Source of the DNA: Escherichia coli
GTDB taxonomy: Bacteria; Pseudomonadota; Gammaproteobacteria; Enterobacterales; Enterobacteriaceae
Length of the DNA stretch: 64,000 nucleotides
NCBI RefSeq assembly: GCF_048403405.1
Contig: NZ_CP183131.1
Direction: 5' to 3' (one strand)
Under the pieces are notes generated by a model that was not told the DNA's origin, did no database searches, and worked only from the letters and a program-made list of their open reading frames with translations. Made by a program: the position numbers and the translations under genes. The number at the start of each line of letters is the position of its first letter. Positions within the stretch are counted from its first letter, which is position 1. Shown piece by piece: positions 1,467 through 40,877 of this stretch.

Positions 1467-1562
1467 TATTCACCTCCTATACCAACCAGCGTACAGGACT
1501 TTTCAAAAATGCAACCCCGCCTAGCTGCCCAATTCGGGCAACCCTGATTCAATCCAGAACTT

Positions 1563-2084
1563 TCACATGTGAAACTTTCCGCCACAGGAACAGGAGGTTT
1601 TTACCTGACCAGAACGGATGGATTGATAGCGGTGCCACAGCTTGACCACTTCTTTTTCGCTGAGAAGGTTTGTCTTGATGTAACGGACTCTATCCCCGTC
1701 CGCTGTCTCAACAACGGTTCGGACATAGCCGTACTTGGCAACGGGTGCCTTGTACTTGTGTGACAGAATTACCCGGTAAACCGAGAGCTGGATAATGTCC
1801 GACTCATAGATGTGGTTTACCTGGCGCAGCTTGGTGTCCAAGGGAATGAGAACCCCATTCTTGGTTTGGTACACCTGATCAACCCTGCCGTGCATGGGCA
1901 CCGGCTGTGTGGTTGATATGTCCTGTTCGGACAAAAACAGAGTGGCCGAGCGCAGCTCATAAGGCATGTTCTCTGATTTCCACCACGCCCAGGTGTCTCC
2001 AATGCCGCGTTTGCGCCATTGGTCCACTTTCGCAATGACGAAAGGGGCGATGATCAGGACGAATATCCAGAGAACTGGCTTCAT
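1563..2084 (-). CDS. membrane-anchored PD-(D/E)XK (RecB/Cas4-like) nuclease
   Basis: 173 aa. N-terminal TM helix (VLWIFVLIIAPFVIA). Motifs in order: GRVDQV, LIPLDTK (D-x-K) and QLSVY (QxxxY), plus a C-terminal Cys cluster CSCGG. This is the canonical RecB/Cas4 nuclease motif order. Confidence 0.55.
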   Translation of the reverse strand: MKPVLWIFVLIIAPFVIAKVDQWRKRGIGDTWAWWKSENMPYELRSATLFLSEQDISTTQPVPMHGRVDQVYQTKNGVLIPLDTKLRQVNHIYESDIIQLSVYRVILSHKYKAPVAKYGYVRTVVETADGDRVRYIKTNLLSEKEVVKLWHRYQSIRSGQVKTSCSCGGKFHM

Positions 2085-2086
2085 GA

Positions 2087-2608
2087 CTACCTCCGGCCCC
2101 TAAACCACTCTGGATGATTGGATACATCCATGCTCTTAACCTGTGATGAGAAGACCAGTAGCTCTTGGGTCGTCAGGACGGTCTCAGGAGCCCGAGCGAT
2201 GAAAGGTCTCAGCAATTCAGAACCCGCATAGATATTGATGACCATATGCAATCGCTCTGTTGCTCCAGAAACTCTCCGCCAGCTCCGGTAGGTTTCTGTT
2301 GATTTGGCATAGCCAACCAAGGCAGGAGCCAGCGTGTCGGACTCCTTCGTATTCAACTTCCCTTTTGCTGCCTTCGATACGAACTCAGCGATCACCGAAG
2401 CCAGCATGTCGGAGGTAAGGTGAAGCGGCAGCTTTATCGTGTCGAAGTCAGCCTGCTTGATGGTGAACAGGCGGATGTGATCGTTGCGGTAGTCACGCAC
2501 ATAGATGACATGACTCTCAAATGGGTTGGAGTGGTTAAAGGCATCCATACCCCAGCCTGCGGCCTCAAGATGTGCGTTTGATACTGACTTGTCGTAATCA
2601 AATTCCAC
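2087..2608 (-). CDS. hypothetical protein
   Basis: 173-aa ORF with a GTG start directly after the stop of 2613..3221 (tight operon packing). No motif recognised. Confidence 0.5.
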   Translation of the reverse strand: MEFDYDKSVSNAHLEAAGWGMDAFNHSNPFESHVIYVRDYRNDHIRLFTIKQADFDTIKLPLHLTSDMLASVIAEFVSKAAKGKLNTKESDTLAPALVGYAKSTETYRSWRRVSGATERLHMVINIYAGSELLRPFIARAPETVLTTQELLVFSSQVKSMDVSNHPEWFRGRR

Positions 2609-2612
2609 GCTA

Positions 2613-3221
2613 TTACTCTCCGTCTTGTCGTTCAGGAACTTTCACATGTGAAAGTTTTCCGTCGGTCATGATGTCCAGGACGGCTTTGCCCAGTCTCATC
2701 CCTTTATGGTTTTGAACCGGGTCTCCCTTGTAGAAAAGTCCTGGCTCGTTATCGGGATGGAATACCCCGTGAGGAATGTTGTCGTGATCGCCCAGCCACA
2801 TGCGTAGCCTCAGATCCACCAGCCACCCATCATCCAGGACAACCCAGAAATGCGGTGTCACGATGTCCTTGGTCTGTTCGTTTCGCACAAAGCCATACAT
2901 GCAGTCATGAGGTACACCCGCTTCATTGAGTAGGTGGCTTACTGCCCATGTCATACCGTCACATTCCATCTGGCAGTCATCCAAGGTCATAAGGACGGCT
3001 TCCAGTTCCCGGTGCCACTCCGTCATTTGCTTGGCCGCAGGTTTTACCACCAGCTCGTTTTTGTTTTCTGCCAAGATGATGTCTTCCTCGTCAATATTGC
3101 ATTCGTCTATCGCTTCCGAACGGATGGATACCGCTTCATCCCAGTCATCGCTCGATCCGAAAATGCTCCAACCCTCAAGACCGTAATTCACCCATACGAT
3201 GAACCGCTTTATCGTTTTCAT
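2613..3221 (-). CDS. hypothetical protein, possible Cys-His-Asp (transglutaminase/papain-like) fold
   Basis: 202 aa, first gene of the minus-strand operon. Candidate triad context CDGMTWAVSHLL ... PHFWVVLDDGWLVDL. Assignment is weak. The 3' end encodes the 20-bp palindrome at 2637-2656. Confidence 0.45.
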   Translation of the reverse strand: MKTIKRFIVWVNYGLEGWSIFGSSDDWDEAVSIRSEAIDECNIDEEDIILAENKNELVVKPAAKQMTEWHRELEAVLMTLDDCQMECDGMTWAVSHLLNEAGVPHDCMYGFVRNEQTKDIVTPHFWVVLDDGWLVDLRLRMWLGDHDNIPHGVFHPDNEPGLFYKGDPVQNHKGMRLGKAVLDIMTDGKLSHVKVPERQDGE

Positions 3222-3238
3222 GTGCGGCCCCCTTTAAC

Positions 3239-3258
3239 CGTGCAACGTTCCCACATAC
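3239..3258 (+). repeat. orphan oriV-type iteron
   Basis: CGTGCAACGTTCCCACATAC matches the iteron consensus of the 5204-5964 array in the same orientation. It sits in the divergent promoter region between 3221(-) and 3490(+). Confidence 0.7.
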
Positions 3259-3489
3259 TCACCCCTTCAAACCGTAACCCCACCAAAAAGCCACTTCTTG
3301 ATGATTTCCAATCAGCAGCGGCAGGTTGCCCCTGAACTAACCTCACCGAAAAACCACCTTTAGATTGCTTTCTGGTGCTTATCAAGTTCTCCTGAGTGAT
3401 TAGTCGTTCTGAAAACTTTACTTTTCACAGTATCATTTTATAATACTGTAAATCATAAAAACAACCCAGTAAAGAAAAAAGAGCGACTT

Positions 3490-4605
3490 ATGTTGAGACG
3501 AGAAAACCAAGGAGATTTGTTCGATGACCAGGTGGTGTTGCCATCACTGGAGTCGGTTCTTACCGGCATATCTTCCAGTCAGCGTTGTGACGATAGAACA
3601 ACGTACTTCTCCGCTCCGGATGTGGACCTGAGTTTGTACGATCACATCATTGTTTGCCTGTCTGGAGGCAAAGACTCGATTGCTGCGTACTTGCGGCTGG
3701 TGGACATGGGTGTTGATAAGTCAAAGGTGGAGTTCTGGCACCATGATGTTGATGGTCAGGAAGGCAGTTCGTTGATGGATTGGGCCTTCATGCGTGATTA
3801 CTGTCGTCAGCTCGGGGAAGAACTGGGTATCCCAATGTACTTCTCGTGGCTTGAGGGCGGCTTTGAGGGCAAAATGCTCAAAGACAATGCCTATAGCCAC
3901 CCCCATCGTGTAGAGACGCCTGAGGGGCTTCTGGTGCTGCCTAGAGACCATAAGCGCTCTAAGCCTGGTACGCGCCTTCGTTTCCCTCAGCAATCGCCAT
4001 CACTCCAAACAAGGTGGTGCTCATCAGCCTTGAAGATCGATGTTGGCCGCAGAGCTCTTAATAACCAGGAGCGCTTCAAGGGGAAGAAGATCCTTTTCAT
4101 CACTGGTGAGCGCCGGGAGGAAAGTGCAAACAGATCCAAGTACAACCAGCTTGAGGCTCATGCCTGTGACAGAAGATATGGGAAGACTGCACGGTTAGTT
4201 GATGCCTGGAGGCCCGTTCTTCATTGGACTGAGGAGGAGGTATGGGAAGTAATCGAGCGTCACCGCATCCTGGCCCCAGTCCCTTATCGCCTTGGCTGGA
4301 GCCGGTCGTCGTGTATGACCTGCATCTACAACTCACAGCGTATCTGGTCCACGATCCGTCACTACTGGCCTGAACGAGCTGGGAAAATTGCTCAGTATGA
4401 ACAAACCTTTGGTGTGACGGTATCAAGAAAAAAAATCGACGTAATAGATTTAGGTTCTGCTGTTGCGCCGATACAGATTAGTGATGTTGAGGCATTGGAG
4501 CAGGTATCCAGAGAAGATTACACGCTCCCGATTTTTGTGCCGGAGGGGCAGAAGTGGGTTCTCCCTGGTGGCGCATTTGGCCGAGAGGCCTGTGGTTCTG
4601 ATTGA
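3490..4605 (+). CDS. PP-loop ATP pyrophosphatase / PAPS-reductase-family protein
   Basis: 371 aa. PP-loop motif VCLSGGKDSIAA. Overall layout resembles phosphoadenosine-phosphosulfate reductase-like (IbrA/DndC-related) proteins. C-terminal CMTC. Confidence 0.7.
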   Translation: MLRRENQGDLFDDQVVLPSLESVLTGISSSQRCDDRTTYFSAPDVDLSLYDHIIVCLSGGKDSIAAYLRLVDMGVDKSKVEFWHHDVDGQEGSSLMDWAFMRDYCRQLGEELGIPMYFSWLEGGFEGKMLKDNAYSHPHRVETPEGLLVLPRDHKRSKPGTRLRFPQQSPSLQTRWCSSALKIDVGRRALNNQERFKGKKILFITGERREESANRSKYNQLEAHACDRRYGKTARLVDAWRPVLHWTEEEVWEVIERHRILAPVPYRLGWSRSSCMTCIYNSQRIWSTIRHYWPERAGKIAQYEQTFGVTVSRKKIDVIDLGSAVAPIQISDVEALEQVSREDYTLPIFVPEGQKWVLPGGAFGREACGSD

Positions 4606-4622
4606 TTTGTGCAGAGGTGGCA

Positions 4623-5057
4623 ATGTTGGATTTTGTTTTTTTGGTGTTTTTGGGGTTGGGCATATCTACGGTGCTGGTGCGTCGGTCTTCCCGTAAGGGG
4701 ATGGATCTTGAGCTGACATGGCTCCAGTCGTTGAAGGTCGTGCTGGTTCGTGGAGCTGTTGCATTGGGCCTGGGTTTTGGCATTGGCAGGCTTGTATTGA
4801 TGGGGATGCAGTATGGTTTCCTGAGTGAGTCTGTCCTGAGGGAACATGCACTTGTCTCCGTAGCGGTGGTTCTGATCTGTGGGCTTGGTTCGTTCGTTGC
4901 GTTTCAGTGGATCATCGGGAGGATCTCTGGAAGATCGATCAGCGTCGTTTCTGTGATCAAAGCTGTGATGTACGAGTCTGGTTACTTTGTGCTGTCGATG
5001 CTTATCTTGTTGGTGATACTCGTCCTGTTCGGCCTTGCATACGAGACTTTTTTCTAA
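4623..5057 (+). CDS. integral membrane protein (about 4 TM)
   Basis: ORF 4602..5057. ATG at 4623 is preceded by GAGGTGG. Four hydrophobic segments. Adjacent to and probably co-transcribed with the PP-loop gene. Confidence 0.5.
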   Translation: MLDFVFLVFLGLGISTVLVRRSSRKGMDLELTWLQSLKVVLVRGAVALGLGFGIGRLVLMGMQYGFLSESVLREHALVSVAVVLICGLGSFVAFQWIIGRISGRSISVVSVIKAVMYESGYFVLSMLILLVILVLFGLAYETFF

Positions 5058-5203
5058 AAAAACAGTGTTGATTATTTTTTGTTCAGTGATCAAAAGGATA
5101 AATATAAAGATCTTTAGATCTTTGTATAAAGGATTAAAAACGGTTAAAGACAGGTTAGGCGTTCTAAATCACCACTCAACACATTGATATTACTGGTGTT
5201 TTC

Positions 5204-5964
5204 ATATTTATTCCGTGCAACAAACCCATAGGTTGCCGTGCAGCGTTCCCATAGGTTGCCGTGCAACGTCCCCACATACCCTTGGATCTTATCCACTGTT
5301 ATCCACACGGAACCCCTCTTTTTTCCACAAAATCCTTACAAAACAGAGCTTTCGTGCAGCGTTCCCACATATCAGATCTGGTGTTCGTGCAGTATTCCCA
5401 CATGTCTAAGGTCATACGTGCAGTCGCCCCATATACAATTTTCTGAACGTGCAACGTACCCACATGTCAATTTTGGTCGTTTTTTGCACCGTGCAGCGTA
5501 CCCACATATGATCGTGCAGCGTTCCCATATACCAAAACCCCGTTTATGCACAGGAAATGTGGATAACTTTTGGCCTCTTTTTGTGTGCGCGTGATCACTT
5601 TATGGACTATTAGAGTCATTTTGACTGCTTTTTTAGGTTTGTCCTGATCTGTCAATCTTTGTTCTGCTTCGTCAATCGTGCAGAGTTCCCATATATCGAG
5701 AGGTTCAGGACCTGCTTTCGTGCAACGTACCCACATATCAAATCTCATAACGTGCAGGTCCCCCACATCCTCACCCTTTAACTATCAATACCTTACGGGA
5801 ACCACTCTACGGGAACCACTGGAGCAGCATGGCACTTATCCTTCGTCGTGGCTTACGCTTGCACGATACTGAGACTCAGCTTGCGACTACCGTGCAGCGA
5901 TCCCATATATAGAGCCCCAGCCCACGCTGCATCTGGGGTCACGTTCGCTCTATCCGTGCAGCTC
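5204..5964 (+). repeat. oriV iteron array (14 direct repeats, IncA/C type)
   Basis: CGTGCA(A/G)NNNNCCCA(C/T)AT-type about 19-bp repeats, all in the same orientation. They start at 5204, 5227, 5250, 5343, 5376, 5407, 5438, 5480, 5503, 5667, 5709, 5741, 5881 and 5945. The array lies downstream of repA, as described for RA1/IncA/C replicons. An AT-rich, GATC-rich stretch at 5090-5200 adjoins it. Confidence 0.85.
5279..5297 (+). promoter_or_regulatory. tandem DnaA boxes in oriV
   Basis: TTATCCACT (5279-5287) and perfect TTATCCACA (5289-5297). A third perfect box lies on the opposite strand at 5548-5556 (TGTGGATAA). Confidence 0.7.
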
Positions 5965-6033
5965 CCCCATATGCGGAGGCATTCCGTTTCCGGTCCTGCC
6001 TGGTGGGCGTACCTTGTGCGCTTTCTTCTGGCA

Positions 6034-6056
6034 TAAAAAAAGGCGCTGACGCGCCT
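6034..6056 (-). terminator. rho-independent terminator after repA
   Basis: Minus strand: AGGCGC-GTCA-GCGCCT hairpin followed by TTTTTTTAT, about 40 nt after the repA stop. Confidence 0.7.
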
Positions 6057-6093
6057 ATCTTTCTTTTCCCTGGGGGGTGGGAGATTCTGGTGG

Positions 6094-7194
6094 CTATCTC
6101 CCCTTACGTTGGGGTTCATCAATGATGTCGTGGTCGATCATGCCGTGCTTGATGGCCCGTAGCTCTGTCTGCTGCTTACGCTTGTTGGACGCCATCACCT
6201 GCTTCACGAAGTTCTCATGAGGCCTTATGACGTACCGCACGTCGATGACTCTGCGGCCATCCTTGATCTGGTTCGCGTCGTAGTCGCTTATGACCTCTTG
6301 TTTGATGAGGGCCTCCAGAGCGAGCTTCATGGCTCTGACGTTCTCCGGCATCCGTGGGCTCAATTCACGAGGGCTCTGGGTCAGGAAGCTGATAAGCGAT
6401 GGCGTGTACGGCGAATCTGGTGATGCTTGAGTCCAGTAGTGGCTCATTCGCTTGTAGATGTACCGTGCAAGAGGGGAGCGGATTTGCATTCCGATTTTGT
6501 AGTTGTACTGACGAAACGACAGATTCATGATCGATTCGTTTACCAGCGGGTTGAACTGCACATAGCACCTGGCGTTCCCGCCTTTCTTGCGAAACTCACC
6601 TCTGGTGGTCAGTCCCACCATCGGGAAGAAGCTGGAGCTGATGAAGGCTTCACCGTCATCACTGATACATTCGAGTGTTGCGCCACGACAAACCTGGATT
6701 GCTTCCTTGATTTCGTTCAGGTTGTACCCGTGACCCATCTTCGAGAGCTCTTTCTGGAGTTCGTACAGAGTGAACATGACTCCAGCCTTGCCCTCGATGA
6801 TATGGCCTTTCCCGTTCACTGCGAGCTTGCGTAGAGCATCCTCAAGGATTTCCTCTCGCTGTCCCGCGTAGATCAGCACGGTTCTTCCGTCATCCTTCTC
6901 GATGATGGCTGGCTTCACCTTCACCGTGAAATGCTGGCCTCTGATGGTGCATTGTCGTGTCACTACAGCGTTGGATAAATCTTCATGCTCACGCTTTTGG
7001 TCCCAAATGTACTTCGGCAGCGCATCGTAGATCTCGATGGTGTTGGAGTAGTCGTCTTTCTTGGCCGGAGATTCAATGATCTCAAACAGGCTCATTTGCG
7101 GTGAGTCTTTGATTACGTCGAGTTTCTCCAGGTCTTTGTCTTTGGTTCTCTTGCTCATGATTGTTCCGTCGATACTTTCTAGCTGGTGGTCCAT
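6094..7194 (-). CDS. repA: replication initiator RepA (IncA/C family)
   Basis: 366-aa ORF (alternative start MSKRTKDKDLEKLDVIK at 7158). The sequence is recognised as IncA/C RepA. It is followed by its own iteron array and DnaA boxes. Confidence 0.9.
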   Translation of the reverse strand: MDHQLESIDGTIMSKRTKDKDLEKLDVIKDSPQMSLFEIIESPAKKDDYSNTIEIYDALPKYIWDQKREHEDLSNAVVTRQCTIRGQHFTVKVKPAIIEKDDGRTVLIYAGQREEILEDALRKLAVNGKGHIIEGKAGVMFTLYELQKELSKMGHGYNLNEIKEAIQVCRGATLECISDDGEAFISSSFFPMVGLTTRGEFRKKGGNARCYVQFNPLVNESIMNLSFRQYNYKIGMQIRSPLARYIYKRMSHYWTQASPDSPYTPSLISFLTQSPRELSPRMPENVRAMKLALEALIKQEVISDYDANQIKDGRRVIDVRYVIRPHENFVKQVMASNKRKQQTELRAIKHGMIDHDIIDEPQRKGR

Positions 7195-7466
7195 GCCGCC
7201 AGCATTGTCAATGCTCCCGCTGCTACCGTCGCTGAAAACACTAGCTGGTAGATGCGACGCTTAGCCCCCGCAGTGCCGCTCATAAAACGCAGGGCTGCCG
7301 CTTCATATCGGAAATGAGCGAACTCACCCCGAAGGGTGCTATCTGTCCCCTGTGGCGATTGTGGGCGCTTTGACAGGGCAGGGCGAGGATGGCTGGCGAC
7401 TTTCTTGATCATCGCTTCACATTTCCCCAGTTTCGCCAATTCAGTGGCCGCTACAGATGCTGTCAT
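7179..7466 (-). CDS. small hypothetical protein (C-terminal TM)
   Basis: 95-aa ORF packed between the 188-aa gene (stop 7471) and repA (16-nt overlap). C-terminal hydrophobic tail IYQLVFSATVAAGALTMLAAW. No homology recognised. Confidence 0.35.
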   Translation of the reverse strand: MTASVAATELAKLGKCEAMIKKVASHPRPALSKRPQSPQGTDSTLRGEFAHFRYEAAALRFMSGTAGAKRRIYQLVFSATVAAGALTMLAAWTTS

Positions 7467-7470
7467 GTTG

Positions 7471-8037
7471 TCACACCTCGTCGCTATGTGTCTTGTTTAG
7501 CTGGCGCTCGTACTCGTTTAGCGCCCGGCGAATTTTTGCTAAGGCAGTGGCGCGTTGTCTTAACACGGCATACCTGGTTTCAACTTGCTGGATCAACTCT
7601 TGTGCCCAGACAGGCTCTTTCTTGAAGTGCGACATGCTGTAGGCATGACCGCGACCCTTCTTGATATGTGTCGATAGAACCCTTTTCTTTTGTCCGGGAA
7701 CTTGTTCGACAAATCTGTTGCGATACCACTCTGCAACGAGTGATACGCCTAGAATGCGAACCCGTGTACCGACACGCCCTTGTTCGTCCTCTGACGCTTC
7801 TTCACGCGCTGATTTGTGCGCGTTCCAGTACATGTCCGCTTCCTGCTGCGCCTCGACAGCAAGAACCGCTAAGGCGTGATCCAGTTTGCTCCGTACCTCT
7901 GCAACAAACTCTCGTCCCTCTGCCTCTAGCAGATCCTCTGTTATCTCGGATCGTTCTTCTTCGAGCTTCGGATCTAGCAGATCTAGCCATCGCTCTGTTG
8001 GTAGACTCACCTCAATACCCTCCCAATTCCTATCCAA
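7471..8037 (-). CDS. hypothetical protein; position fits the oriT-adjacent transfer factor MobI of IncA/C plasmids
   Basis: 188 aa, charged and helical. It is transcribed away from the AT-rich repeat region 8024-8249 and toward repA. The MobI assignment rests only on remembered synteny (oriT immediately upstream of mobI). Confidence 0.45.
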   Translation of the reverse strand: MDRNWEGIEVSLPTERWLDLLDPKLEEERSEITEDLLEAEGREFVAEVRSKLDHALAVLAVEAQQEADMYWNAHKSAREEASEDEQGRVGTRVRILGVSLVAEWYRNRFVEQVPGQKKRVLSTHIKKGRGHAYSMSHFKKEPVWAQELIQQVETRYAVLRQRATALAKIRRALNEYERQLNKTHSDEV

Positions 8038-8351: not shown

Positions 8352-8508
8352 TTCCCTTACTCAACGATCAAAAAGCCACCGAAAAGCAACCTATATGCCC
8401 CTTTTGGGCAATTACACAGGCCATCTGTCCCCGCTTTTAGCCTTATTCTCTATCCAACACGCGGCAAGCAATCGAAAAGCAATCTAAAAGCAATCTTTGG
8501 AGGATTTC

Positions 8509-9492
8509 ATGAGTCAATTTGTTCTGGGTTTGGATATTGGTTACTCCAACCTGAAAATGGCAATGGGGTATAAAGGTGAGGAAGCTCGCACAGTCGTCAT
8601 GCCGGTGGGGGCAGGTCCATTGGAACTGATGCCACAACAGTTAACTGGCGGTGCAGGGACCTGCATTCAGGTTGTGATTGATGGAGAGAAATGGGTTGCA
8701 GGCGTCGAGCCTGACCGATTGCAAGGATGGGAGCGTGAGCTTCACGGCGACTATCCTTCGACCAATCCATACAAGGCTCTTTTCTACGCTGCACTCCTGA
8801 TGTCCGAGCAGAAGGAGATCGATGTGCTGGTGACTGGCCTGCCTGTTAGTCAGTACATGGACGTAGAGCGCAGAGAGGCGTTGAAATCTCGGCTTGAGGG
8901 TGAACACCAGATCACGCCAAAACGATCGGTAGCGGTTAAGTCTGTCGTGGTTGTACCTCAACCTGCCGGTGCTTACATGGATGTTGTAAGTTCAACCAAA
9001 GATGAAGACCTCCTGGAGATTATCCAGGGAGGAAAAACCGTTGTAATTGACCCTGGGTTCTTTTCTGTAGACTGGGTAGCTCTTGAAGAGGGAGAGGTCC
9101 GCTATCACTCATCTGGCACCAGCCTCAAGGCGATGTCGGTGTTGCTACAGGAAACGGACCGGCTAATTCAGGAAGACCACGGCGGTGCCCCTGGCATCGA
9201 AAAGATCGAGAAAGCTATTCGTGCCGGTAAGGCCGAAATCTTCCTCTACGGTGAAAAGGTATCGATCAAAGACTACTTCAAGAAAGCCTCAACCAAAGTC
9301 GCTCAAAACGCCTTGATCCCTATGCGGAAGTCAATGCGTGAGGACGGGATGGATGCTGACGTAGTTCTGCTGGCTGGCGGCGGTGCCGAGGCTTACCAAG
9401 ATGCGGCCAAGGAGCTTTTCCCTAAGAGCAGGATCGTACTGCCCAACGAATCCGTGGCATCCAATGCCAGGGGCTTCTGGTTCTGCGGCTGA
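8509..9492 (+). CDS. stbA: actin-like plasmid segregation ATPase (ParM/StbA family)
   Basis: ATG 8509 is preceded by GGAGGA. N-terminal phosphate-1 motif LGLDIGYSNLK; size and layout are typical of ParM/StbA. Tandem 11-bp repeats AAAAGCAATCT (8475-8496) abut the SD. Confidence 0.8.
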   Translation: MSQFVLGLDIGYSNLKMAMGYKGEEARTVVMPVGAGPLELMPQQLTGGAGTCIQVVIDGEKWVAGVEPDRLQGWERELHGDYPSTNPYKALFYAALLMSEQKEIDVLVTGLPVSQYMDVERREALKSRLEGEHQITPKRSVAVKSVVVVPQPAGAYMDVVSSTKDEDLLEIIQGGKTVVIDPGFFSVDWVALEEGEVRYHSSGTSLKAMSVLLQETDRLIQEDHGGAPGIEKIEKAIRAGKAEIFLYGEKVSIKDYFKKASTKVAQNALIPMRKSMREDGMDADVVLLAGGGAEAYQDAAKELFPKSRIVLPNESVASNARGFWFCG

Positions 9493-9802: not shown

Positions 9803-9803
9803 C

Positions 9804-11449: not shown

Positions 11450-11983
11450 TCACAAATCACGAAGGTTGCGATAGATAGCCAAGACTCGGCTACCATAGTT
11501 TCTGGCTCGGATTTCGTCTTCCCAGGCGTGATAGCGGCCAACGCCAAGCTCCAAGTCATTTGGAGATGACTGAATGGCTTCTGATAGCACCTCTGCCCCA
11601 ACCATGACGTTGGTCTCTGGGTCGAGAAGATCTGCTGGAGAAGAAACTCTATGACCATTCCACCGGATGCTCACTTGCATAAACCCGACATCAATGGCAC
11701 GACCGTACTGCTGCTGAAACTCAGCGAGCTTAGCCTTTGCCTGATCTTCCGACTTAGCATAGAAAGGAAGCCCAGGAACGCGAAGCGTCCAAGGCCAAGG
11801 ACTTATAGAGCCATTACCTCTCCCTGATGCAGATTCGGCCAATGCGACCGAATACACTAGAAGAGGGTCGAGGTTATATGCTTTCGCTGCTTTGTCGAAG
11901 ATGGTTCCGCTCAGGTCAATAGCATTCGCTGTTGATGAAAGGAGAGCCGCAGACAGAACTAGCGCCTTGGCTTTGTTCTTCAT
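11450..11983 (-). CDS. lytic transglycosylase (SLT domain), secreted
   Basis: Signal peptide MKNKAKALVLSAALLSSTANA. Catalytic-Glu context SVALAESASG. 177 aa. Confidence 0.8.
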   Translation of the reverse strand: MKNKAKALVLSAALLSSTANAIDLSGTIFDKAAKAYNLDPLLVYSVALAESASGRGNGSISPWPWTLRVPGLPFYAKSEDQAKAKLAEFQQQYGRAIDVGFMQVSIRWNGHRVSSPADLLDPETNVMVGAEVLSEAIQSSPNDLELGVGRYHAWEDEIRARNYGSRVLAIYRNLRDL

Positions 11984-12255
11984 CAGCTTGCCTCCTTATG
12001 TCTGAGGGGTATTTCGTGTTCTTCGTCGTACCGCTCCGGCCAAATCTCAGACGGCTTCACACCCAAAGCTGTAGCTATCTCATGTTCCCAGCGTGGACTG
12101 GGCTTATAGAGTGCCGTAGACACCACCTGCCGAGATGTTTTGTGTTTTCTGCCCAATGCGGCCAGAGAAAGCCCCTGGATCTTGAGTTTGTACTTGATCC
12201 ACTCACGTTTCTTCTCTGGGTCGCTTGGGATGTCTATCAATTGGCATTTATCCAT
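11983..12255 (-). CDS. acr1: Ner-like HTH repressor
   Basis: 90 aa. Strong resemblance to Mu Ner/Nlp (GLSLAALGRKH...SEIWPERY). First gene of the acr1-slt-acaDC operon, as in IncC. Confidence 0.65.
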   Translation of the reverse strand: MDKCQLIDIPSDPEKKREWIKYKLKIQGLSLAALGRKHKTSRQVVSTALYKPSPRWEHEIATALGVKPSEIWPERYDEEHEIPLRHKEAS

Positions 12256-12824
12256 TGTTTGCCACCCTTTAAACTGCGTTGTTAGCCATACAAAAAGTGC
12301 GTTATTCGATGAACGCTTTTAGAGTTCTTCTATTGTCACAAACTGACACATTTTGCGCCTTTACAAGCCCAAATAATGATGCTGTCAACAATAAAAAACC
12401 TTTAAAAACATACACTTAACTTTGTACCGACGGAACAAAGTTACAATACTTTTAGTAATCAATGGGATACGGATATTTTTGCGATAGTAATGGAAAGTGC
12501 GCCAAAAGAATGGCGGAAATAGCGCACGGGGAGTGCGGTATTTTGTGATATTAAATAGCGTTTAGGTATAAGTGATTTTAGGGATACAGCGAGGGCTGAA
12601 ATTGCGAATACAGCAGGAGCTGAGGAGGGCAGGGAAGGCAAAGGCGCATCCCGACCACACAAGGATGATGGTGTTTACAGAAAGAGATATTTGAGAAAGA
12701 GAACTCTGCGGTGTTGCAGATGGGGACCAAAGCGTTAGCAATGGCCTATTCCATAGTGTATGCGATTTGTTTGACATGTTCAACTATGTAATGCTTTGTC
12801 AATAAACGCCTTGTTCCGTAAGGG

Positions 12825-12848
12825 CAAACTTTCACATGTGAAAGTTTG
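12825..12848. promoter_or_regulatory. 24-bp perfect palindrome (parS-like site)
   Basis: CAAACTTTCACATGTGAAAGTTTG, flanked by AGGGCAAA direct repeats. A half-site AAACTTTCACA lies at 12907-12917. See findings. Confidence 0.6.
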
Positions 12849-12970
12849 AGGGCAAATTCTAATCGAAGAAGTTGCCAATGGAATGGTTGTTTAGCAAAAA
12901 ATAGTCAAACTTTCACAGTTGCATTTTTTGATGCCGTGGTAAACTGGAGGTAAAGAGTAAGGGGGTTGAT

Positions 12971-13333
12971 ATGAAACATGTGGTCAATATTCTTCTGCTG
13001 GGAATGGTGCTTCTGGGAATAGCCATGATGGCTGACACACCTTGGGGACTTGGTGTGGCGCTGGCTCCCTTCGGCGTTTGGGGTGCTCGTTTCCTATTTC
13101 TGGTTCACAAAAGCCTTTGGGCTGCTGTTATCTTTTGGGGAGGGATCGCTTACTTCCAGTGGCAAGTTGCTTTGGTTGTCGGGGCTCTGTTTGGACTAAC
13201 GTGCTTTATCCGCGTTGCGCGGTCAGCATATAAAGAGGCACCACCTACCCGGCGCAGAAAAAAACAAACTGGTGGGTTTCAAGATTCCTATGATTTTGAC
13301 CAGCGCTTCCATATTGGAGCTGGAGACGAATAA
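12971..13333 (+). CDS. inner-membrane protein, candidate entry-exclusion factor (Eex-like)
   Basis: 120 aa, 3-4 TM segments and a charged C-terminal tail. Convergent with traG, where SXT/IncC-type elements encode Eex. The assignment is positional. Confidence 0.45.
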   Translation: MKHVVNILLLGMVLLGIAMMADTPWGLGVALAPFGVWGARFLFLVHKSLWAAVIFWGGIAYFQWQVALVVGALFGLTCFIRVARSAYKEAPPTRRRKKQTGGFQDSYDFDQRFHIGAGDE

Positions 13334-19449: not shown

Positions 19450-19516
19450 AGTCTCACGCACGTATTTTCCCATGCTCGATATGGTAGAGGTGGGAGGCGT
19501 GAAATTAGGCAGGTGT

Positions 19517-19537
19517 AAGCGCCCATTTAGGGCGCTT
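19517..19537 (-). terminator. hairpin between helicase operon and traF (weak terminator)
   Basis: AAGCGCCC-ATTTA-GGGCGCTT 8-bp stem. There is no clear U-tract on the minus strand, so function is uncertain. Confidence 0.35.
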
Positions 19538-19556
19538 AGAGCGTTTTATTTGTCAA

Positions 19557-19572
19557 CTTTCACATGTGAAAG
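19557..19572. promoter_or_regulatory. 16-bp perfect palindrome (parS-like site)
   Basis: CTTTCACATGTGAAAG with outer GTCAA...TTGAC, in the gap between the helicase stop (19584) and the traF start. Confidence 0.6.
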
Positions 19573-19583
19573 AATTGACCAAA

Positions 19584-21103: not shown

Positions 21104-21382
21104 CTACGACAAACACATCTGGAGAGTGATGCGCTTCTTTTGTGTCGAGAGGAACGTACTGATCCGCTTTTCTTCTCGGGGGAGGGATACTTCACAATCC
21201 AGATCTGTCCACCAGTCTGGGGCTTTACCTTGAGCCACCTCCGTAACCCAACTATGGAGACGGTGTAACCAGCGATAGTCGCCAATAGATGAGGTGGCTA
21301 GTGTCATAGCCTCCTCAATCTTGGTTTGAAGAGCCGCAGCTCTGTGTCGCCACTCTTCTGAATATTTAGCCTTTCGCGCCAT
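21104..21382 (-). CDS. hypothetical protein
   Basis: 92-aa ORF, overlapping the kfrA-like stop by 1 nt. No motif recognised. Confidence 0.5.
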   Translation of the reverse strand: MARKAKYSEEWRHRAAALQTKIEEAMTLATSSIGDYRWLHRLHSWVTEVAQGKAPDWWTDLDCEVSLPREEKRISTFLSTQKKRITLQMCLS

Positions 21383-22422
21383 CAGTTTTCCTCTTTCTTT
21401 TTCCCTCCCTTACCAGCTTTAGCGAGCTCTTGCTCCAACCCAGAAATTTTGGTCAGTGCATCATTGAGTCTTTGTTCGAGGCTCTTGGCCTGCTGGTCTT
21501 TTTCCTGCAACTGACCAGCCATCATGCCTTTGTCTTGAACAAGAGCGCGAGCTTCTGCTTCGGCGCTGGATAATTTGGCGTCCAGCTTTTCTACCTCTCC
21601 AGATAGGCGCTGGCACTCTCGTTCAGCGGATTCGCCATGAGCTTTGGCTGTGGCAAGGGAGTCCTGTGATTGGGCCAGTTTGGCCTGTACATTTTCGAGC
21701 TGCTCTTTCAACGATGTTTTTTGTTCCTGAGCGGCCCGGAGCTTTTCTGTCTGCTCTATACTCTTGCCTTTTTGCTCCTCCAACTCACCCTCTGTAGTTG
21801 CCAATTTTTGGCTCAAAGAGCGATTTTCGCTTTTAGCTTGCTCCAGGTGATCCTGTGCTCGGGTCAGATCTGCGGCTTTCGCCTCCAGCTTGCCCTCCAA
21901 CTCAACGATCCGCTTTTCCAGCTTATCAATGTCAGCCAGTGAGCGTTCTAGCTCCGCAGACTTGAGGGATAGCGAGTTTTCTGCCTTACCAAGGGCCGCA
22001 TCGAGCTCTGATTTTTTGTTGGTGAGAGCTTCAAGTTGTTCCTCCAGTAGCTCAGCCCGTTCGGTGGCATCATTTGCCATGTCCACGGCTTGCTGCATAT
22101 CTTCCTGGTACTCAATTTCTTTCTGTCGTAGCAGTTCACGCTCGCGCTCAAGCTGTTCATCGGCGCTTGCTTTGGCTACCGTATAGATCTTCTGTAGGAA
22201 GAGCTCAGCATCGCTCATAACCGATTCTGGAAGGACTACCTCTACCAGCTCTTCATCGAGGGAGTGTTCCTCTGACCACTGTTTGAGATACGTTGAAATG
22301 GTGGTAAAGCTCCCCTTGCCAATGATGTCTCTGATAGCGATGACCGTTGGGCGTTTACCGGCGTCCTTGAGCTTTTGGGCCGCAGCCGCTACATCGTCAA
22401 ACTCAACCAATTTTCTTGCCAT
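21382..22422 (-). CDS. kfrA: KfrA-like DNA-binding coiled-coil protein
   Basis: N-terminus FDDVAAAAQKLKDAGKRPTVIAIRDIIGKGSFTTISTYLKQW resembles the KfrA_N HTH. The remaining about 280 aa are E/K/L/A-rich coiled coil. Confidence 0.7.
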   Translation of the reverse strand: MARKLVEFDDVAAAAQKLKDAGKRPTVIAIRDIIGKGSFTTISTYLKQWSEEHSLDEELVEVVLPESVMSDAELFLQKIYTVAKASADEQLERERELLRQKEIEYQEDMQQAVDMANDATERAELLEEQLEALTNKKSELDAALGKAENSLSLKSAELERSLADIDKLEKRIVELEGKLEAKAADLTRAQDHLEQAKSENRSLSQKLATTEGELEEQKGKSIEQTEKLRAAQEQKTSLKEQLENVQAKLAQSQDSLATAKAHGESAERECQRLSGEVEKLDAKLSSAEAEARALVQDKGMMAGQLQEKDQQAKSLEQRLNDALTKISGLEQELAKAGKGGKKKEEN

Positions 22423-37118: not shown

Positions 37119-37265
37119 CGCTTTTCAGTATCTCGACAGGGATAACTTACTTTACCATCGGTTATCCCTTTTAGCCGCACAAATTTTAGCCATGGCTTTT
37201 CAGGAAGTCAGGGCTATCAGAATGGCCTTAGAAAGCCTAGTCAAAGAGCTGTCACGAGAACACCG

Positions 37266-38180
37266 TTAGCTTAGCGTACGATTTTTTCCGAATTCTGCGG
37301 TTCCCCCTCCAGGGAAGGATTCGATAGTGACTCCACCGAAGGTGCCAAGGATTTCCGATGCCGCTTTATCAGATCGAGTTTTGCGTTGTTCTGAGGCGTC
37401 AAAGTTACGAAGCAATTTGAGCTGAACATCCTTATCCTGGAGCACGATCAGGGGCATTGGCGCGGTAACGGTTTTGAGTACCCCTGCGGCCATGACGTTT
37501 GCCACCGGTTGAACCTTTACTTCCCTTCGCTCCCGGAGATAAGGCTCCGGGGTGCTGGCGATCTTCTGGATAAGCTGCTCCAGGGGAAGTTGATAGTCTG
37601 GCCCAGATCGCTCCAGCTCCTCTCTGATGCGTTGCAAAAGCTCCTCTTTTACGGGCTTCTTCAAGGAGTCCTTCCGTTGCCAGGTGAAGCGGATAGAGTC
37701 GATGTCGCCATTGGTATAGCACCGAATTTGTCTGTAAAGGTGGAGAGTCATGACACCAGGGCAGTCCGCTCGAAGTGCTTCAAACCTCTCTTGCCTGGTG
37801 GGGTACGTCGAGATAATGAACTCCTCGATACCAGCTTTGGCCGCGTTGATGCGTTCAACCGTCGCCGCAATTTCGTCAGCTACACCAATCCTGGAAGGGG
37901 AGAACCAGAGTACCCCCACGGTGCGCCTGGCAGACTTCTGCGAATAGTCTGGGTTGATGTGAAGATCTCTGTAGCTGTGCGCTGCCAGCTCAAGAGCTTC
38001 GCGCCCAGTTTGTTCAGTTACGACAATCTTGTTGACGGGCTCGTTCTCCATTCCTTTTCCGGTAGGAGGGATGGCCGCAACTTTTGCGTACCGTGGCGGT
38101 AGTCGTTTGATAAGAGAGGACAGGTTCGTTAAGTCGCGGCACATGGCCGAGAATTGTTCTGATATGAAGTTTTTAGCCAT
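37266..38180 (-). CDS. Tus-family replication terminus-binding protein, C-terminus altered by transposon insertion
   Basis: Blocks align to E. coli Tus: RRTVGVLWF vs VRLPGVLCY, CPGVMTLHLYRQ vs LPGLITLNAYRT, VKVQPVANV vs VKVQPIARV, APMPLIVL vs CPTPLIAL. The last 13 codons (GGTAEFGKNRTLS) are read from the Tn IR. Confidence 0.75.
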   Translation of the reverse strand: MAKNFISEQFSAMCRDLTNLSSLIKRLPPRYAKVAAIPPTGKGMENEPVNKIVVTEQTGREALELAAHSYRDLHINPDYSQKSARRTVGVLWFSPSRIGVADEIAATVERINAAKAGIEEFIISTYPTRQERFEALRADCPGVMTLHLYRQIRCYTNGDIDSIRFTWQRKDSLKKPVKEELLQRIREELERSGPDYQLPLEQLIQKIASTPEPYLRERREVKVQPVANVMAAGVLKTVTAPMPLIVLQDKDVQLKLLRNFDASEQRKTRSDKAASEILGTFGGVTIESFPGGGTAEFGKNRTLS

Positions 38181-38237
38181 GCTGCCGCCTATGTGTGGGT
38201 TTGTTCTAACAGTTCATTGGTTACATAGTAGACAGAT

Positions 38238-38459
38238 TTAGACCATCATGCAACGAGGGGGAGGGGCAAGAATACGCCTCCGCTTCGCGTCGGCGGGTGC
38301 CCTGTTTGACCTTCGTGTGTGAGATTAGATTGAGAAAGAGAGAGAAAGAGAGAAAAAGAGAGAAAGAAGAAAAGCGCGGGGCAAGCCAGAAATGTGGCTG
38401 AGGGGGACTGCTGGGGTGGGGCTGGCACCCTCTATACCCCACTTTGCATGATGGTCTAA
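38238..38459. repeat. 16-bp perfect inverted repeats enclosing G-rich and polypurine tracts
   Basis: TTAGACCATCATGCAA (38238-38253) and TTGCATGATGGTCTAA (38444-38459). Interior has GAGGGGGAGGGG, a polypurine run of about 55 nt (38321-38375, GAGAAAGAGAGAGAAAGAGAGAAAAAGAGAGAAAGAAGAAAAG) and GGGGTGGGGCTGG. Confidence 0.8.
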
Positions 38460-38504
38460 CTTTGTGGTTATAGGACGACTTTTAGAGTGCCTAGATTTGC
38501 TCGA

Positions 38505-38996
38505 TTAGGACAAATTTCGGTCCATCCACGCTGATTGGCGTAGCAGCGCGATGGCATCAGAAGGGGTAACTTTCCATGCGTTGGAAAGCTGGCGAACTGC
38601 GAAGACTGCGAGCTCCATTCGGTCGTCATCATTGATGAAATTCTGGAGCTGGTTTCCTCGCTCACTAAGGATGATCGCAACACCGGCCTTGCCGTTGTTG
38701 TAAACCGCAAAGCTCTTATTCTTCGCGTCGCCGTGATAGGAACCCTCAGCCTTGCTACGCAAACCAAAGAGAACGCTGCAAAACGCCGTCAGTTCGCCGC
38801 GAGTGAGCTGCACCGTGATCTTGCTTTTCCAGTCTGGGCTGGACCCCGATGCCCTGATCGGCGCAATCTCGATGCTGACCGTAGGATATTCACCTCTGGT
38901 TAGCGTGTGTTGCACATTCAGGCCGGTGCGTTTCGCGGGGTCCTTCTGCCAGTCTGAGAAAAATTTGAGACTTTCGCCGTAGGATTGTTCTGTCAT
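38505..38996 (-). CDS. hypothetical protein
   Basis: 163-aa ORF overlapping the exonuclease stop by 4 nt. No motif recognised. Confidence 0.5.
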   Translation of the reverse strand: MTEQSYGESLKFFSDWQKDPAKRTGLNVQHTLTRGEYPTVSIEIAPIRASGSSPDWKSKITVQLTRGELTAFCSVLFGLRSKAEGSYHGDAKNKSFAVYNNGKAGVAIILSERGNQLQNFINDDDRMELAVFAVRQLSNAWKVTPSDAIALLRQSAWMDRNLS

Positions 38997-39862
38997 TCCA
39001 AATTACCTTTGCTTTGAAGCTCCTGGAGCTGGACCACGAGGTCACGTTGGACTTTGGCTATCTCTGTCACCAAGTCGGCGGTGGCAATAGCGTCGGTCGC
39101 TGCTGAATGGGCTCGACCTTTCCAGCTCACACCTGCCTCGCAGGTGGCATCCGCAAGTGAGATTGTGCCGTGCCGGTTGGTTGAGCCAAAGGCATCAGCC
39201 GCCAGCTTCATCGCGCACAGACAGTTCTGCTCTTGCCACCAAGAGAGTTGGTCTCCAAATGCACTGGCTGTTTGCCTCAACATCCTACTGTCGAAACTGG
39301 AGTTAAATATCACCAGATGACGGCCCGACAAAAGCCGGGCGAGAGCTGGCGCAACTTGAGTCCACGTAGGCTCATTCGACAGCTCAGTCTCGGTGATGCC
39401 ATGAACACCCATTGCCTGAGGGTCTATTTCCACGGTTGGCCGTAATCTGGTGCAGAGGAGAACCGCGCCTCTGATGTCAGTAACAGCCAGCTCGATCACC
39501 TGGTCTCTTTCACCAAGTCCGGTCGTCTCGGTATCGAGAACCAGAGGTTCCAGAGCGACCCACCTTTGTGCCATGACAGAGGCCTTTGCCAGGTTGCTAC
39601 GCATTCTTGCCTTGACCGAAAGGATGGATTGCGCCCTTATTTGCTTTTGTGATGCCGGTGAACAACCCCTTCTCCGCATTGGTTGGCAATCTGCTATCCG
39701 GTACACTCCAAATTGGCCACCATACCCGTTTTTGTAGAACGAAACTGGCTCTACTCCTGGCTTAGGCTTCATCCGAAATTCGTCCCTGAGCCGTCCTTTT
39801 GAAAAGCACCTATCGGCTTTCATGGCTTCGGCTCTGGCAAGTTCGAGTTCTTCATCATTCAT
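38993..39862 (-). CDS. DEDDh 3'-5' exonuclease (DnaQ/epsilon-like) with N-terminal extension
   Basis: ExoI LVLDTETTGL, ExoII-like FNSSFDSRML and ExoIII HSAATDAIATADL motifs. 289 aa. Confidence 0.75.
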   Translation of the reverse strand: MNDEELELARAEAMKADRCFSKGRLRDEFRMKPKPGVEPVSFYKNGYGGQFGVYRIADCQPMRRRGCSPASQKQIRAQSILSVKARMRSNLAKASVMAQRWVALEPLVLDTETTGLGERDQVIELAVTDIRGAVLLCTRLRPTVEIDPQAMGVHGITETELSNEPTWTQVAPALARLLSGRHLVIFNSSFDSRMLRQTASAFGDQLSWWQEQNCLCAMKLAADAFGSTNRHGTISLADATCEAGVSWKGRAHSAATDAIATADLVTEIAKVQRDLVVQLQELQSKGNLE

Positions 39863-39866
39863 GCTG

Positions 39867-40877
39867 TTAATCCGCTATATCGAGGCGTTGGCTCGCTCTC
39901 TTCAAACGCTCATCGCCGCGTCTGTCATATTTCTGGGTAGTTGCAATGCTTGAGTGGCCCATTGCGTCCTTCACGGTCACAATATCCTCACCGTTATCCA
40001 GCATCGAGGAGGCAAAGGTGCGTCGCAGGTCATGGGGCGCAAACATCTCCAGACCGGCTTCAACTCTTCTGGTCTCCAAGATGTGGTAGATGGCCTGATC
40101 CGACATCCGCTCTCCAGTCACATCATCAAACCGCCTGATCCTCGGGAATAAAGGCCCTTCATGCGTTCCTCGAACCTCTTCAACCCACTTATCCAGTCTT
40201 TTCCATGCGCCACCAGGCACATACGCCATTCTCTCTTTGTTGCCCTTGCCAAGAACCTTGAGAGCGCGGTCCTTGTAGATCATGCTTCCCATGTCCAGCG
40301 CAACGATTTCCGAGCGGCGCAAGCCACACCCGAGGAGCACCCCGAGAATGGCCGCATCCCGAAGCCCTTTGGCGCTTGAATCACTTTCACATGTGAAAAA
40401 GAGGCTGCGAATCTCATGGCGTTCAAGTGCCCGCCCTTTAGGAAGTCGAGATCCACGTACTGAACGGACTTGCTTAATGTGCTGGAAGCTATCCGTATCA
40501 ATTTGCTTCATCGTCCAGGCTTCAAGAGCCACCCCTTTGAGCGCTGACAGGTAGGTGTTGATCGTTGCCGGAGCCTTCCCTGCATCCCCCAGCATTTCCA
40601 GCACCGCCAATATGTGGTGCCGCCTCATTGAGCTCCATGCACAGTCACGAAGGTTCTGAAACCCGATCATCTTGGCGACAATGTTGAGGAATGAGCTCAT
40701 GGTCTGCCTGCTTCGCTTTGACCCGAGGCTCACCAGATAGGCGACGGCGGGGTTGTCCTGGATGTTCCGGAGCGAGCTCGATGACGGCAACAGTTCACCG
40801 CGAATGCTTTGTTCTGCCGGAACATTTACTTTCGCATGTGAAACTAGCTCTTCCTTGTCATTGTTTGTGTCGTGCAA
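39867..40877 (-). CDS. int: tyrosine site-specific recombinase (XerC/D-like integrase)
   Basis: 336 aa. Catalytic region GLRRSE..., HDLRRTFAS and GHSSIATTQKYDRR (R-H-R-Y). Contains two copies of the parS-like palindrome in its coding sequence (40385-40398, 40840-40853). Confidence 0.8.
   Translation of the reverse strand: MHDTNNDKEELVSHAKVNVPAEQSIRGELLPSSSSLRNIQDNPAVAYLVSLGSKRSRQTMSSFLNIVAKMIGFQNLRDCAWSSMRRHHILAVLEMLGDAGKAPATINTYLSALKGVALEAWTMKQIDTDSFQHIKQVRSVRGSRLPKGRALERHEIRSLFFTCESDSSAKGLRDAAILGVLLGCGLRRSEIVALDMGSMIYKDRALKVLGKGNKERMAYVPGGAWKRLDKWVEEVRGTHEGPLFPRIRRFDDVTGERMSDQAIYHILETRRVEAGLEMFAPHDLRRTFASSMLDNGEDIVTVKDAMGHSSIATTQKYDRRGDERLKRASQRLDIAD

Follow-up and report, generated by a model that had tools for sequence, protein, structure and literature searches.

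Copies of a palindrome in an IncC backbone

The window, that is, the whole 64-kb stretch of DNA that was analysed, is IncC plasmid backbone and is 100% identical to many plasmids. It carries a RepB-family repA gene (6094-7194, minus strand), a PAPS-reductase-family gene (3490-4605), an acr1-type HTH gene (11983-12255, minus strand), a UvrD-helicase gene followed by traF, a transposon and resistance region, and a tyrosine recombinase gene (int; 39867-40877, minus strand). A motif scan for the 14-bp palindrome TTTCACATGTGAAA recovered all five exact copies that a preliminary description of this DNA had reported, at the same coordinates (Table 1). Its extended symmetry (20 bp at 2637-2656 and 24 bp at 12825-12848), its two half-sites (AAACTTTCACA at 12907-12917 and CTTTTCACA at 3421-3429) and the gene contexts that it gave for the copies, as judged from ORF positions, were likewise confirmed. 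It had also announced a copy with one mismatch at 40840-40853; a single such copy does exist, but its true place is 40830-40843.

Table 1. Palindrome copies, half-site and activator boxes in the window (positions of the window; copies are named in the text by the first base of the core)
Feature	Position	Core	Strand	Remarks
parS site, GAAC-core-CTTT	1557-1578	1561-1574		exact core; overlaps stop codon of ORF 1563-2084(-)
parS site, GAAC-core-GTTT	2636-2657	2640-2653		exact core; 3' end of ORF 2613-3221(-)
consensus parS, AAACTTTCACATGTGAAAGTTT	12826-12847	12830-12843		exact core; identical to published EMSA probe
isolated half-site, AAACTTTCACA	12907-12917		+	54 bp ahead of start of ORF 12971
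parS site, CAAC-core-GAAT	19554-19575	19558-19571		exact core; gap between UvrD-helicase gene and traF
parS core in int, TCAC-core-AAGA	40381-40402	40385-40398		exact core; codons F-T-C-E
one-mismatch copy in int, TTTCGCATGTGAAA	40826-40847	40830-40843		N-terminal codons, S-H-A-K
AcaCD-like activator box beside site 1561	1517-1544		-	PWM 13.2 bits
AcaCD box of PtraF beside site 19558	19511-19538		-	PWM 20.9 bits

Beyond these six, the 64 kb held no match with up to two mismatches. Dinucleotide shuffles gave on average 0.37 such matches, and none of 100 shuffles reached six. No copy was found from 19572 to 40384, a stretch that includes the transposon and resistance region, in agreement with the earlier remark that the resistance island has none. 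Is the palindrome a repeat without function, recurring by chance or through coding constraint, or as a restriction-modification target or the remnant of a small mobile element? The copies in int do coincide in part with conserved codons. The shuffles, the invariance of the core among plasmids whose DNA is about 69% identical and the published ParB binding argue against this explanation, and we regard it as having practically no chance of being right. A mobile-element remnant or MITE was ruled out because the flanks of the copies are unrelated past 22 bp, and a restriction-modification target because 14-22 bp is far longer than such sites. A hairpin or terminator was also rejected, since the palindrome has no loop.

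The first two copies lie toward the ends of genes. Site 1561 is also upstream of the operon that follows, ORF 993-1466(-); in plasmid R55 a parS copy is found in ORF R55_08, and parS adjoins the AcaCD box of R55_9/vcrx012 (PMC10954446). The core at 2640 is 25 nt ahead of the stop codon of its ORF. Site 12830 occupies the 715-bp gap 12256-12970 between the acr1-type gene and ORF 12971-13333 (plus strand), which is named eexC in PMC10954446; the 22-bp site is 575 bp upstream of the former and 128 bp upstream of the latter. A scan of this intergenic region with the sigma-70 consensus returned no promoter, so we make no claim that parS overlaps a promoter there. Site 19558 is in a 110-bp gap, 13 bp past the helicase stop codon and 85 bp upstream of the traF start.

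Sites 40385 and 40830 are both inside int, and the corresponding gene of R55 (R55_130/xerC) carries a parS copy (PMC10954446). Their flanks match AAAC/GTTT poorly (2/8 and 3/8 positions), and their right halves are partly accounted for by conserved codons (T-C-E and S-H-V-K). For these two reasons they may bind ParB weakly or not at all. The IncA-type int keeps the core at 40385, a pESI-like int matches it at 13/14 positions, and an int of 61% identity no longer has it. At the position of the variant copy the IncA-type int has a perfect core (S-H-V-K), so the IncC variant amounts to one GTG to GCG change. Judging from this alignment, copy 40830 is a decayed form of the site that is perfect in the IncA-type int.

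The 11-mer AAACTTTCACA at 12907 is statistically unusual, with 0.07 occurrences expected per window by chance. It is not kept in IncA, where GAACATTCACG stands instead; the IncA acr1/eexC region has a different extra half-site, 10 bp past its full site. Since IncA lacks it, we did not count the half-site as functional, and its function is doubtful.

Identity with the IncC centromere

Murányi, Szabó, Acsai and Kiss (Nucleic Acids Res 2024, PMC10954446) described the identical core as the parS of IncC plasmids, with 14 copies in R55 when only exact cores are counted. According to their study, the functional unit is a palindrome of about 22 bp, AAAC-TTTCACATGTGAAA-GTTT; ParB binding needs the flanks, and the 14-bp core alone is not bound. 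Purified ParB shifted the 22-bp 'R55_174' consensus probe in EMSA, and this probe is identical to 12826-12847 of the window, the only one of the window copies that is identical to a published EMSA probe. Binding was shown for three 22-bp sequences, namely the R55_174-type probe, the PparA site and the DR2 site of SGI1. Competition assays were also published, and a 4-bp insertion in the centre of parS abolished both binding and incompatibility (PMC10954446). ParA and ParB stabilised a parS-bearing replicon, and 053 was not required; stabilisation and centromere-type incompatibility were seen with SGI1-derived sites on a mini-replicon and with ParA and ParB supplied in trans (PMC10954446). A parS copy in the parA promoter autoregulates the parAB-053 operon through repression of PparA, and SGI1-type genomic islands copy parS and thereby hijack the partition system (PMC10954446).

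The parAB-053 operon is outside the window, about 45 kb away. Because the window does not contain ParAB, the link to the partition system rests on identity to complete plasmids. For the par analysis we used the complete plasmid NZ_LT985224.1, whose backbone is identical to the window. It has 14 exact cores and the variant copy; one core is 50 bp upstream of parA, and every site has AC to the left or GT to the right of the core. Its ParA is a Walker-type ATPase and its 053 is a winged-helix protein. Its ParB has a ParB_N domain of the CTPase type, an HTH_ParB domain and a KorB domain (PF08535, E = 1.7e-38); the best PDB match is KorB of RK2 (8qa8), and GERRWRA of ParB aligns with the CTP-binding motif of KorB.

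We consider, with a probability of about 0.9, that all six copies belong to the type I ParABS partition system of the IncC plasmid as its parS sites. The suggestion of a centromere bound by a ParB/KorB-like protein is thus borne out by published EMSA, incompatibility and stabilisation on the exact sequence (PMC10954446) and by the KorB domain of ParB. A ParB dimer recognises the palindrome of about 22 bp (PMC10954446), and ParB would load at about 14 dispersed sites. Since the GERRWRA motif is intact, ParB is probably a CTP-dependent clamp, as are KorB and chromosomal ParB. ParA would then move the partition complexes so that each daughter cell inherits a copy of the plasmid.

It might be argued that another plasmid protein is the principal binder and ParB a secondary one. 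Candidates are 053, the KfrA-like protein, Acr1 and Acr2: the wHTH protein 053 is required if the plasmid is to be stable (PMC10954446), a KfrA_N protein is encoded in the window (21382-22422), and an additional regulator of PparA was inferred in PMC10954446. Purified ParB alone, however, shifts the sites specifically, and the parS replicon is stabilised without 053 (PMC10954446), which makes this explanation improbable.

The palindrome is therefore an already published centromere of IncC and IncA plasmids and not a new discovery. The biology is important, and since the exact sequence is in the literature (PMC10954446), our analysis adds no new biology. IncC plasmids are important vehicles of carbapenemase and ESBL genes, and partition governs how stably these plasmids persist. 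The partition system is also the lever by which SGI1-type islands evict IncC plasmids. Knowledge of parS is useful for plasmid curing based on incompatibility and helps to explain how islands and plasmids come into conflict.

Transfer promoters and the recombinase gene

Two of the copies stand beside AcaCD boxes. Measured from centre to centre, site 1561 lies 34.5 bp upstream of the box at P012, and site 19558 lies 37.5 bp upstream of the PtraF box. PtraF depends on AcaCD (Carraro et al. 2014), and traF is among the AcaCD promoters with an adjacent parS (PMC10954446). The position weight matrix derives from only 8 island sites in the literature and is crude, and the P012 box scored only 13.2 bits with it. 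On NZ_LT985224.1, five of 15 sites are within 35-90 bp of AcaCD-like boxes. By our estimate this is a strong enrichment against the whole plasmid and a marginal one against intergenic DNA only; because of the latter, we do not take the proximity as established.

These positions bear on the idea that the sites serve mainly as operators in a global regulon of the KorB type, in which ParB silences or modulates P012, PtraF, acr1/eexC and parA, and partition is one role among others. ParB has a KorB domain and KorB as its best PDB match, its sites, roughly 14 in number and dispersed, are reminiscent of the 12 OB sites of RK2, and of the five sites near AcaCD-like boxes the two in the window have nearly identical spacing. 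PparA is repressed, and mutation of the DR1 parS of SGI1 led to a defect in replication control (PMC10954446). KorB itself is a CTP-dependent sliding clamp capable of long-range repression (PMC11790492). On the other hand, published promoter repression is limited to PparA (PMC10954446), three of the six window copies are within or at the end of coding sequences and not in promoters, and the adjacency to AcaCD boxes is barely above expectation, given that both motifs are intergenic. This reading extends the centromere explanation and does not exclude it. We hypothesise a regulon beyond PparA repression, and as the main role of the sites we hold it to be the less likely option, with roughly one chance in three. 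By analogy with KorB, the copies about 35 bp upstream of the AcaCD boxes of P012 and PtraF, and those at acr1/eexC, may let ParB modulate transfer genes.

As an alternative, the preliminary description had offered a core site for the adjacent tyrosine recombinase, read as 6-7-bp arms around CACATGTG; in that case the palindrome would serve cointegrate formation or resolution. Two copies are indeed inside int, and IncA/C plasmids encode a RecA-independent site-specific recombination activity (PMC5587640). Its mapped site is the recombination hot spot RecHS, which consists of 14-bp arms and a 6-bp spacer (Hegyi et al., Sci Rep 2017, PMC5587640) and differs in sequence, TCTACTTTTTCAAA-GATACA-TTTTAATAAGTAGA. 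Using the published architecture, in which a 13-bp perfect inverted repeat with a 1-bp gap (IR1) is 27 bp from IR2, we placed RecHS at 42054-42087, in a single copy beside IR1 at 42115-42141. The parS palindrome is 7+7 and lacks a spacer in which staggered cleavage could occur, recombination at fourteen scattered sites would break the plasmid up, and the motif is already explained by ParB binding. A role as recombinase core is thus not supported and seems very improbable. A 14-bp inverted-repeat hot spot mentioned in the same description is not this element but RecHS. The two are alike in that both are short inverted repeats near int in the IncA/C backbone described as '14-bp'; RecHS, however, has imperfect 14-bp arms and a 6-bp spacer, occurs once, and is a site of recombination and not of ParB.

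Conservation and relation to known systems

Orthologous positions carry an unaltered core in IncA, whose ParB is 91% identical, and in the Aeromonas plasmids pHX3 and pKAM339_1 (aligned ParB 69% identical, DNA about 69%), in which the flanks have changed. The same holds for more distant relatives. Site 2640 is 14/14 in IncA and both Aeromonas plasmids, where its place within the orthologous gene is also the same, and the core persists at the 3' end even in homologs that share only 45-54% of their amino acids. Site 12830 is kept in IncA despite divergence of the surrounding intergenic DNA, and the region of site 19558 is identical there. In Edwardsiella anguillarum the position of site 1561 holds a 48-bp tandem array with about nine cores. 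The positions flanking the core, C/G in IncA/C and A/T in the Aeromonas plasmids, may set ParB specificity.

In a genome scan the motif was widespread in marine gammaproteobacterial elements and islands. ParB was found in one 8-kb genome locus only, the loci being too short to hold it and hence uninformative as to its absence, and flank statistics from the scan were discarded because a query with AC/GT biases them. A group of Marinobacter and Halomonas islands combines a mobI-like gene with an AcaCD-like box and a single TTGAC-core-GTCAA site. This group may be one of several unrelated mobilizable island families that, besides SGI1, have copied parS in order to hijack it. A wider proposal, which we hold to be less likely than not, is that parS is more than a centromere: loading of a KorB-like CTP clamp would couple partition to AcaCD-driven transfer promoters, as the fixed spacing of about 35 bp at P012 and PtraF suggests, and the core would be a centromere code shared by a large, mostly marine MOBH plasmid family.

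The site can be compared with several known systems. The TTTCAC heptamer core of the IncC site is found again in P1 parS box A (ATTTCAC heptamers); P1 parS occupies one locus, where box A and box B motifs are combined around an IHF site, whereas the IncC sites are simple dispersed palindromes, and P1 ParB belongs to a different subfamily from IncC ParB. Chromosomal parS, bound by Spo0J/ParB (TGTTNCACGTGAAACA), has the same half-site TTTCAC/GTGAAA, and its protein has ParB_N, the HTH and the GERRxRA CTP-binding motif. As noted earlier, the IncC site differs in an extra central AT (CAC-AT-GTG), these two bases setting the half-sites 2 bp further apart; it also has C and not G ahead of TTTCAC. 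The 16-bp chromosomal sequence is absent from the window, where one match at three mismatches is at chance level.

The KorB-OB system of the IncP plasmids RK2/RP4 is similar in its ParB homolog with a KorB domain and conserved CTP motif, in a half-site starting with TTT, and in about a dozen dispersed palindromes, one of them in the promoter of the par operon itself. It differs in that OB is a 13-bp sequence, TTTAGCSGCTAAA, and IncC ParB shares only about 30% identity with KorB. OB is absent from the window; two matches at two mismatches are at chance level, both at non-backbone or unrelated positions. We know of no KorA or TrbA partner of IncC ParB that would lock the clamp. The description of the IncC/IncA parAB-053 system (PMC10954446) includes neither the variant at 40830 nor the half-site at 12907. 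In all else the comparison with that system is one of identity: the 14-bp core, the AAAC/GTTT flanks and the plasmid family are the same, the sites likewise fall within two ORFs close to repA, ahead of eexC, in the gap from the helicase gene to traF and within xerC/int, and nothing essential differs.

Palindrome copies and their gene context

A pattern search of the whole 64-kb window for the 14-bp palindrome TTTCACATGTGAAA gave six matches in total at up to two mismatches. In 100 dinucleotide-preserving shuffles the average was 0.37 matches, and not one had as many as six; the palindrome finding is real and statistically overwhelming. The preliminary description had all five exact copies at the right positions, but it put the variant copy 10 bases too high, at 40840-40853. 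The extended symmetry that it described (20 bp at 2637-2656 and 24 bp at 12825-12848) and its two half-sites are present, and its statement that no copy lies in the resistance island was borne out, in that 19572-40384, which covers the transposon and the resistance region, contains no copy with two or fewer mismatches.

Hundreds of IncC plasmids from Klebsiella, Proteus, Escherichia and Salmonella match the first 20 kb of the window at 100% identity, and the gene context was taken from the annotation of one of them, NZ_LT985224.1. The acr1-type HTH gene is the first gene of the acaDC operon, on the minus strand. In the 715-bp gap between this gene and ORF 12971-13333, a lone half-site plus flank, AAACTTTCACA, is located at 12907-12917, 54 bp ahead of the ORF; 0.07 such matches per window are expected by chance. 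The half-site is missing from this place in IncA, which has a different extra half-site 10 bp past the full parS. Adjoining the helicase gene, 21382-22422 (-) encodes a 346-aa protein whose KfrA_N DNA-binding domain is joined to a long coiled-coil tail.

Copies of the palindrome, AcaCD boxes and reference genes in the window (flank matches are matches to AAAC/GTTT, maximum 8)
Feature	Position	Context	Flank matches	Method
Exact core	start 1561	overlaps stop codon of hypothetical gene 1563-2084 (-)	6/8	pattern search
Exact core	start 2640	within final codons of hypothetical gene 2613-3221 (-)	7/8	pattern search
Exact core	start 12830	715-bp gap between acr1-type HTH gene and ORF 12971-13333, which is next to traG	8/8	pattern search
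Exact core	start 19558	between UvrD-helicase gene and traF	5/8	pattern search
Exact core	start 40385	within tyrosine recombinase gene (Phage_integrase domain)	2/8	pattern search
One-mismatch copy TTTCGCATGTGAAA	40830-40843	within the same recombinase gene	3/8	pattern search
AcaCD box	19511-19538	PtraF		matrix scan
AcaCD-like box	1517-1544	upstream of ORF 993-1466		matrix scan
repA, RepB-family	6094-7194 (-)
mobI	7471-8010 (-)

ParB binding and the recombinase alternative

The exact 14-mer has already been reported by Murányi, Szabó, Acsai and Kiss (Nucleic Acids Res 2024, PMC10954446), at locations that include the vicinity of eexC and the DNA helicase gene, ORFs R55_6/R55_08, xerC and the parA promoter, with 12-14 copies in IncC and 10-14 in IncA. 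ParB, the second gene product of parAB-053, was purified and specifically shifts three such sites. Among these three is the consensus site that precedes eexC; its sequence, AAACTTTCACATGTGAAAGTTT, is that of window 12826-12847. The 14-bp core by itself is not bound by ParB, a 4-bp insertion at the centre abolishes both binding and incompatibility, and a site-bearing mini-replicon is stabilised by ParA and ParB (PMC10954446). Two mimics of the site are present on the genomic island SGI1, which stabilises itself and expels the plasmid by means of them (PMC10954446). Since binding, stabilisation and incompatibility are all on record there, the main reading of the palindrome as a set of ParB/KorB-like binding sites is correct, yet already known.

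A core site for the tyrosine recombinase, in whose gene (int) two of the copies lie, had been offered as an alternative, and a recombination hot spot of IncA/C backbones had been named as perhaps the same element. This hot spot, RecHS of Hegyi et al. 2017 (PMC5587640), is, to judge from its published architecture, at 42054-42087, where 14-bp imperfect arms flank a 6-bp spacer (TCTACTTTTTCAAA-GATACA-TTTTAATAAGTAGA), between divergent ORFs 41715-42035 (-) and 42198-42860 (+) and about 1.2 kb from int. At a distance of 27 bp, at 42115-42141, is a 13-bp perfect repeat, TTACCGTAATTAT/ATAATTACGGTAA, which is dispensable (PMC5587640). RecHS differs in sequence from the palindrome. Because the hot spot is an element distinct from parS, the recombinase alternative is unsupported.

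The parA-parB-053 operon is located outside the window. In the complete NZ_LT985224.1, assembled from its record, there are 14 exact cores and the variant copy, and one core is 50 bp upstream of parA. This plasmid encodes ParA as a Walker-type ATPase, ParB with ParB_N, HTH_ParB and KorB domains, and protein 053 as a winged-helix protein. The closest solved structure to ParB is RK2 KorB (8qa8), GERRWRA of ParB aligns with the CTP-binding motif of KorB, and KorB is a CTP-dependent sliding clamp (PMC11790492), so it is reasonable to infer that IncC ParB would act by the same clamp mechanism.

Flanks and conservation of the sites

Every site of NZ_LT985224.1 has AC immediately left or GT immediately right of the core, in agreement with the published G in 16/16 and T in 15/16 (PMC10954446). 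Since the two copies embedded in int have the lowest flank matches, they are the least certain of the predicted binders in the window. An IncA plasmid, whose ParB is 91% identical, retains the traF site, the eexC site and both sites near repA. An IncA-type int homolog (L008) has perfect cores at both int positions, so the IncC copy 40830-40843 is a once perfect site in which one codon has gone from GTG to GCG (Val to Ala); this copy is not counted among the 14 exact copies of PMC10954446. A pESI-like int has 13/14 at both positions, and the site is lost from an int homolog with 61% identity. Because part of each int site falls on conserved codons, its survival owes something to coding constraint.

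The Aeromonas plasmids pHX3 (NZ_CP040718.1) and pKAM339_1 (NZ_AP024941.1) are about 69% identical in DNA and 69% in aligned ParB, and both have the exact core at the equivalent place in the ortholog of the 2613-3221 gene. Their flanking bases are mostly A/T (AAAAA-core-TTTT) whereas IncC has C/G, except at the parA-promoter site, which retains GTTTGGGG. Their ParB has several changes in the HTH helix, and flank and ParB specificity may co-vary between the IncC and Aeromonas plasmids.

AcaCD boxes, wider distribution and specificity

Boxes for AcaCD, the activator of transfer promoters, were sought with a crude matrix built from eight published sites. The centre-to-centre distance to the adjacent parS is 37.5 bp at PtraF and 34.5 bp at 1517-1544, and five of the 15 parS sites of the whole plasmid are within 90 bp of an AcaCD-like box. 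This adjacency is suggestive but no more than marginal if parS sites and boxes alike are confined to intergenic DNA; parS beside AcaCD boxes was noted before at vcrx012, vcrx036, vcrx068 and traF, and those authors themselves drew the analogy to KorB (PMC10954446). A KorB-like regulatory role for IncC parS is hypothetical. The crude eight-site matrix also gave AcaCD-like boxes at 8392-8419, 21790-21817, 49878-49905 and 57815-57842; the first is ahead of the ParM/StbA-family gene 8509-9492, and its promoter is P152 in Carraro et al. 2014.

Scanning genomes, one per species, for ACTTTCACATGTGAAAGT gave at least 120 stretches, compared with about 9 expected by chance. Among the matches listed, most were from Vibrio, Shewanella, Marinobacter, Idiomarina, Photorhabdus and relatives, and 68 of 120 had IncC backbone gene homologs. 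The 3'-end site of the 2613-3221 gene family is retained down to 45-54% protein identity. A contig of Edwardsiella anguillarum CCUG 64215 (NZ_VZOX01000017.1, L117:5064-5478) has 8.6 tandem copies of a 48-bp unit that contains CTTTCACATGTGAAAC; this array of about nine cores lies directly past a homolog of ORF 1563-2084 and is followed by an AcaCD-like box. Its place is equivalent to that of window site 1561, which is here expanded to a centromere-like array.

Eight loci of Marinobacter, Oceanobacter, Pistricoccus and Halomonas (L016, L017, L018, L035, L083, L123, L125 and L126) share a conserved module, in which a single palindrome TTGAC-TTTCACATGTGAAA-GTCAA precedes a distant mobI(A/C) homolog (27-31% identity) by about 620-670 bp. 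Except in L126, where the site is near the locus end, the loci also have an AcaCD-like box, about 190 bp from the site. These loci are probably mobilizable islands and look like further islands, besides SGI1, that mimic the plasmid parS.

A search of the 64-kb window found neither the IncP operator nor the chromosomal parS consensus. Because both are missing there, the IncC parS, in contrast to these two, represents a separate specificity of its own within the ParB/KorB family, as published.
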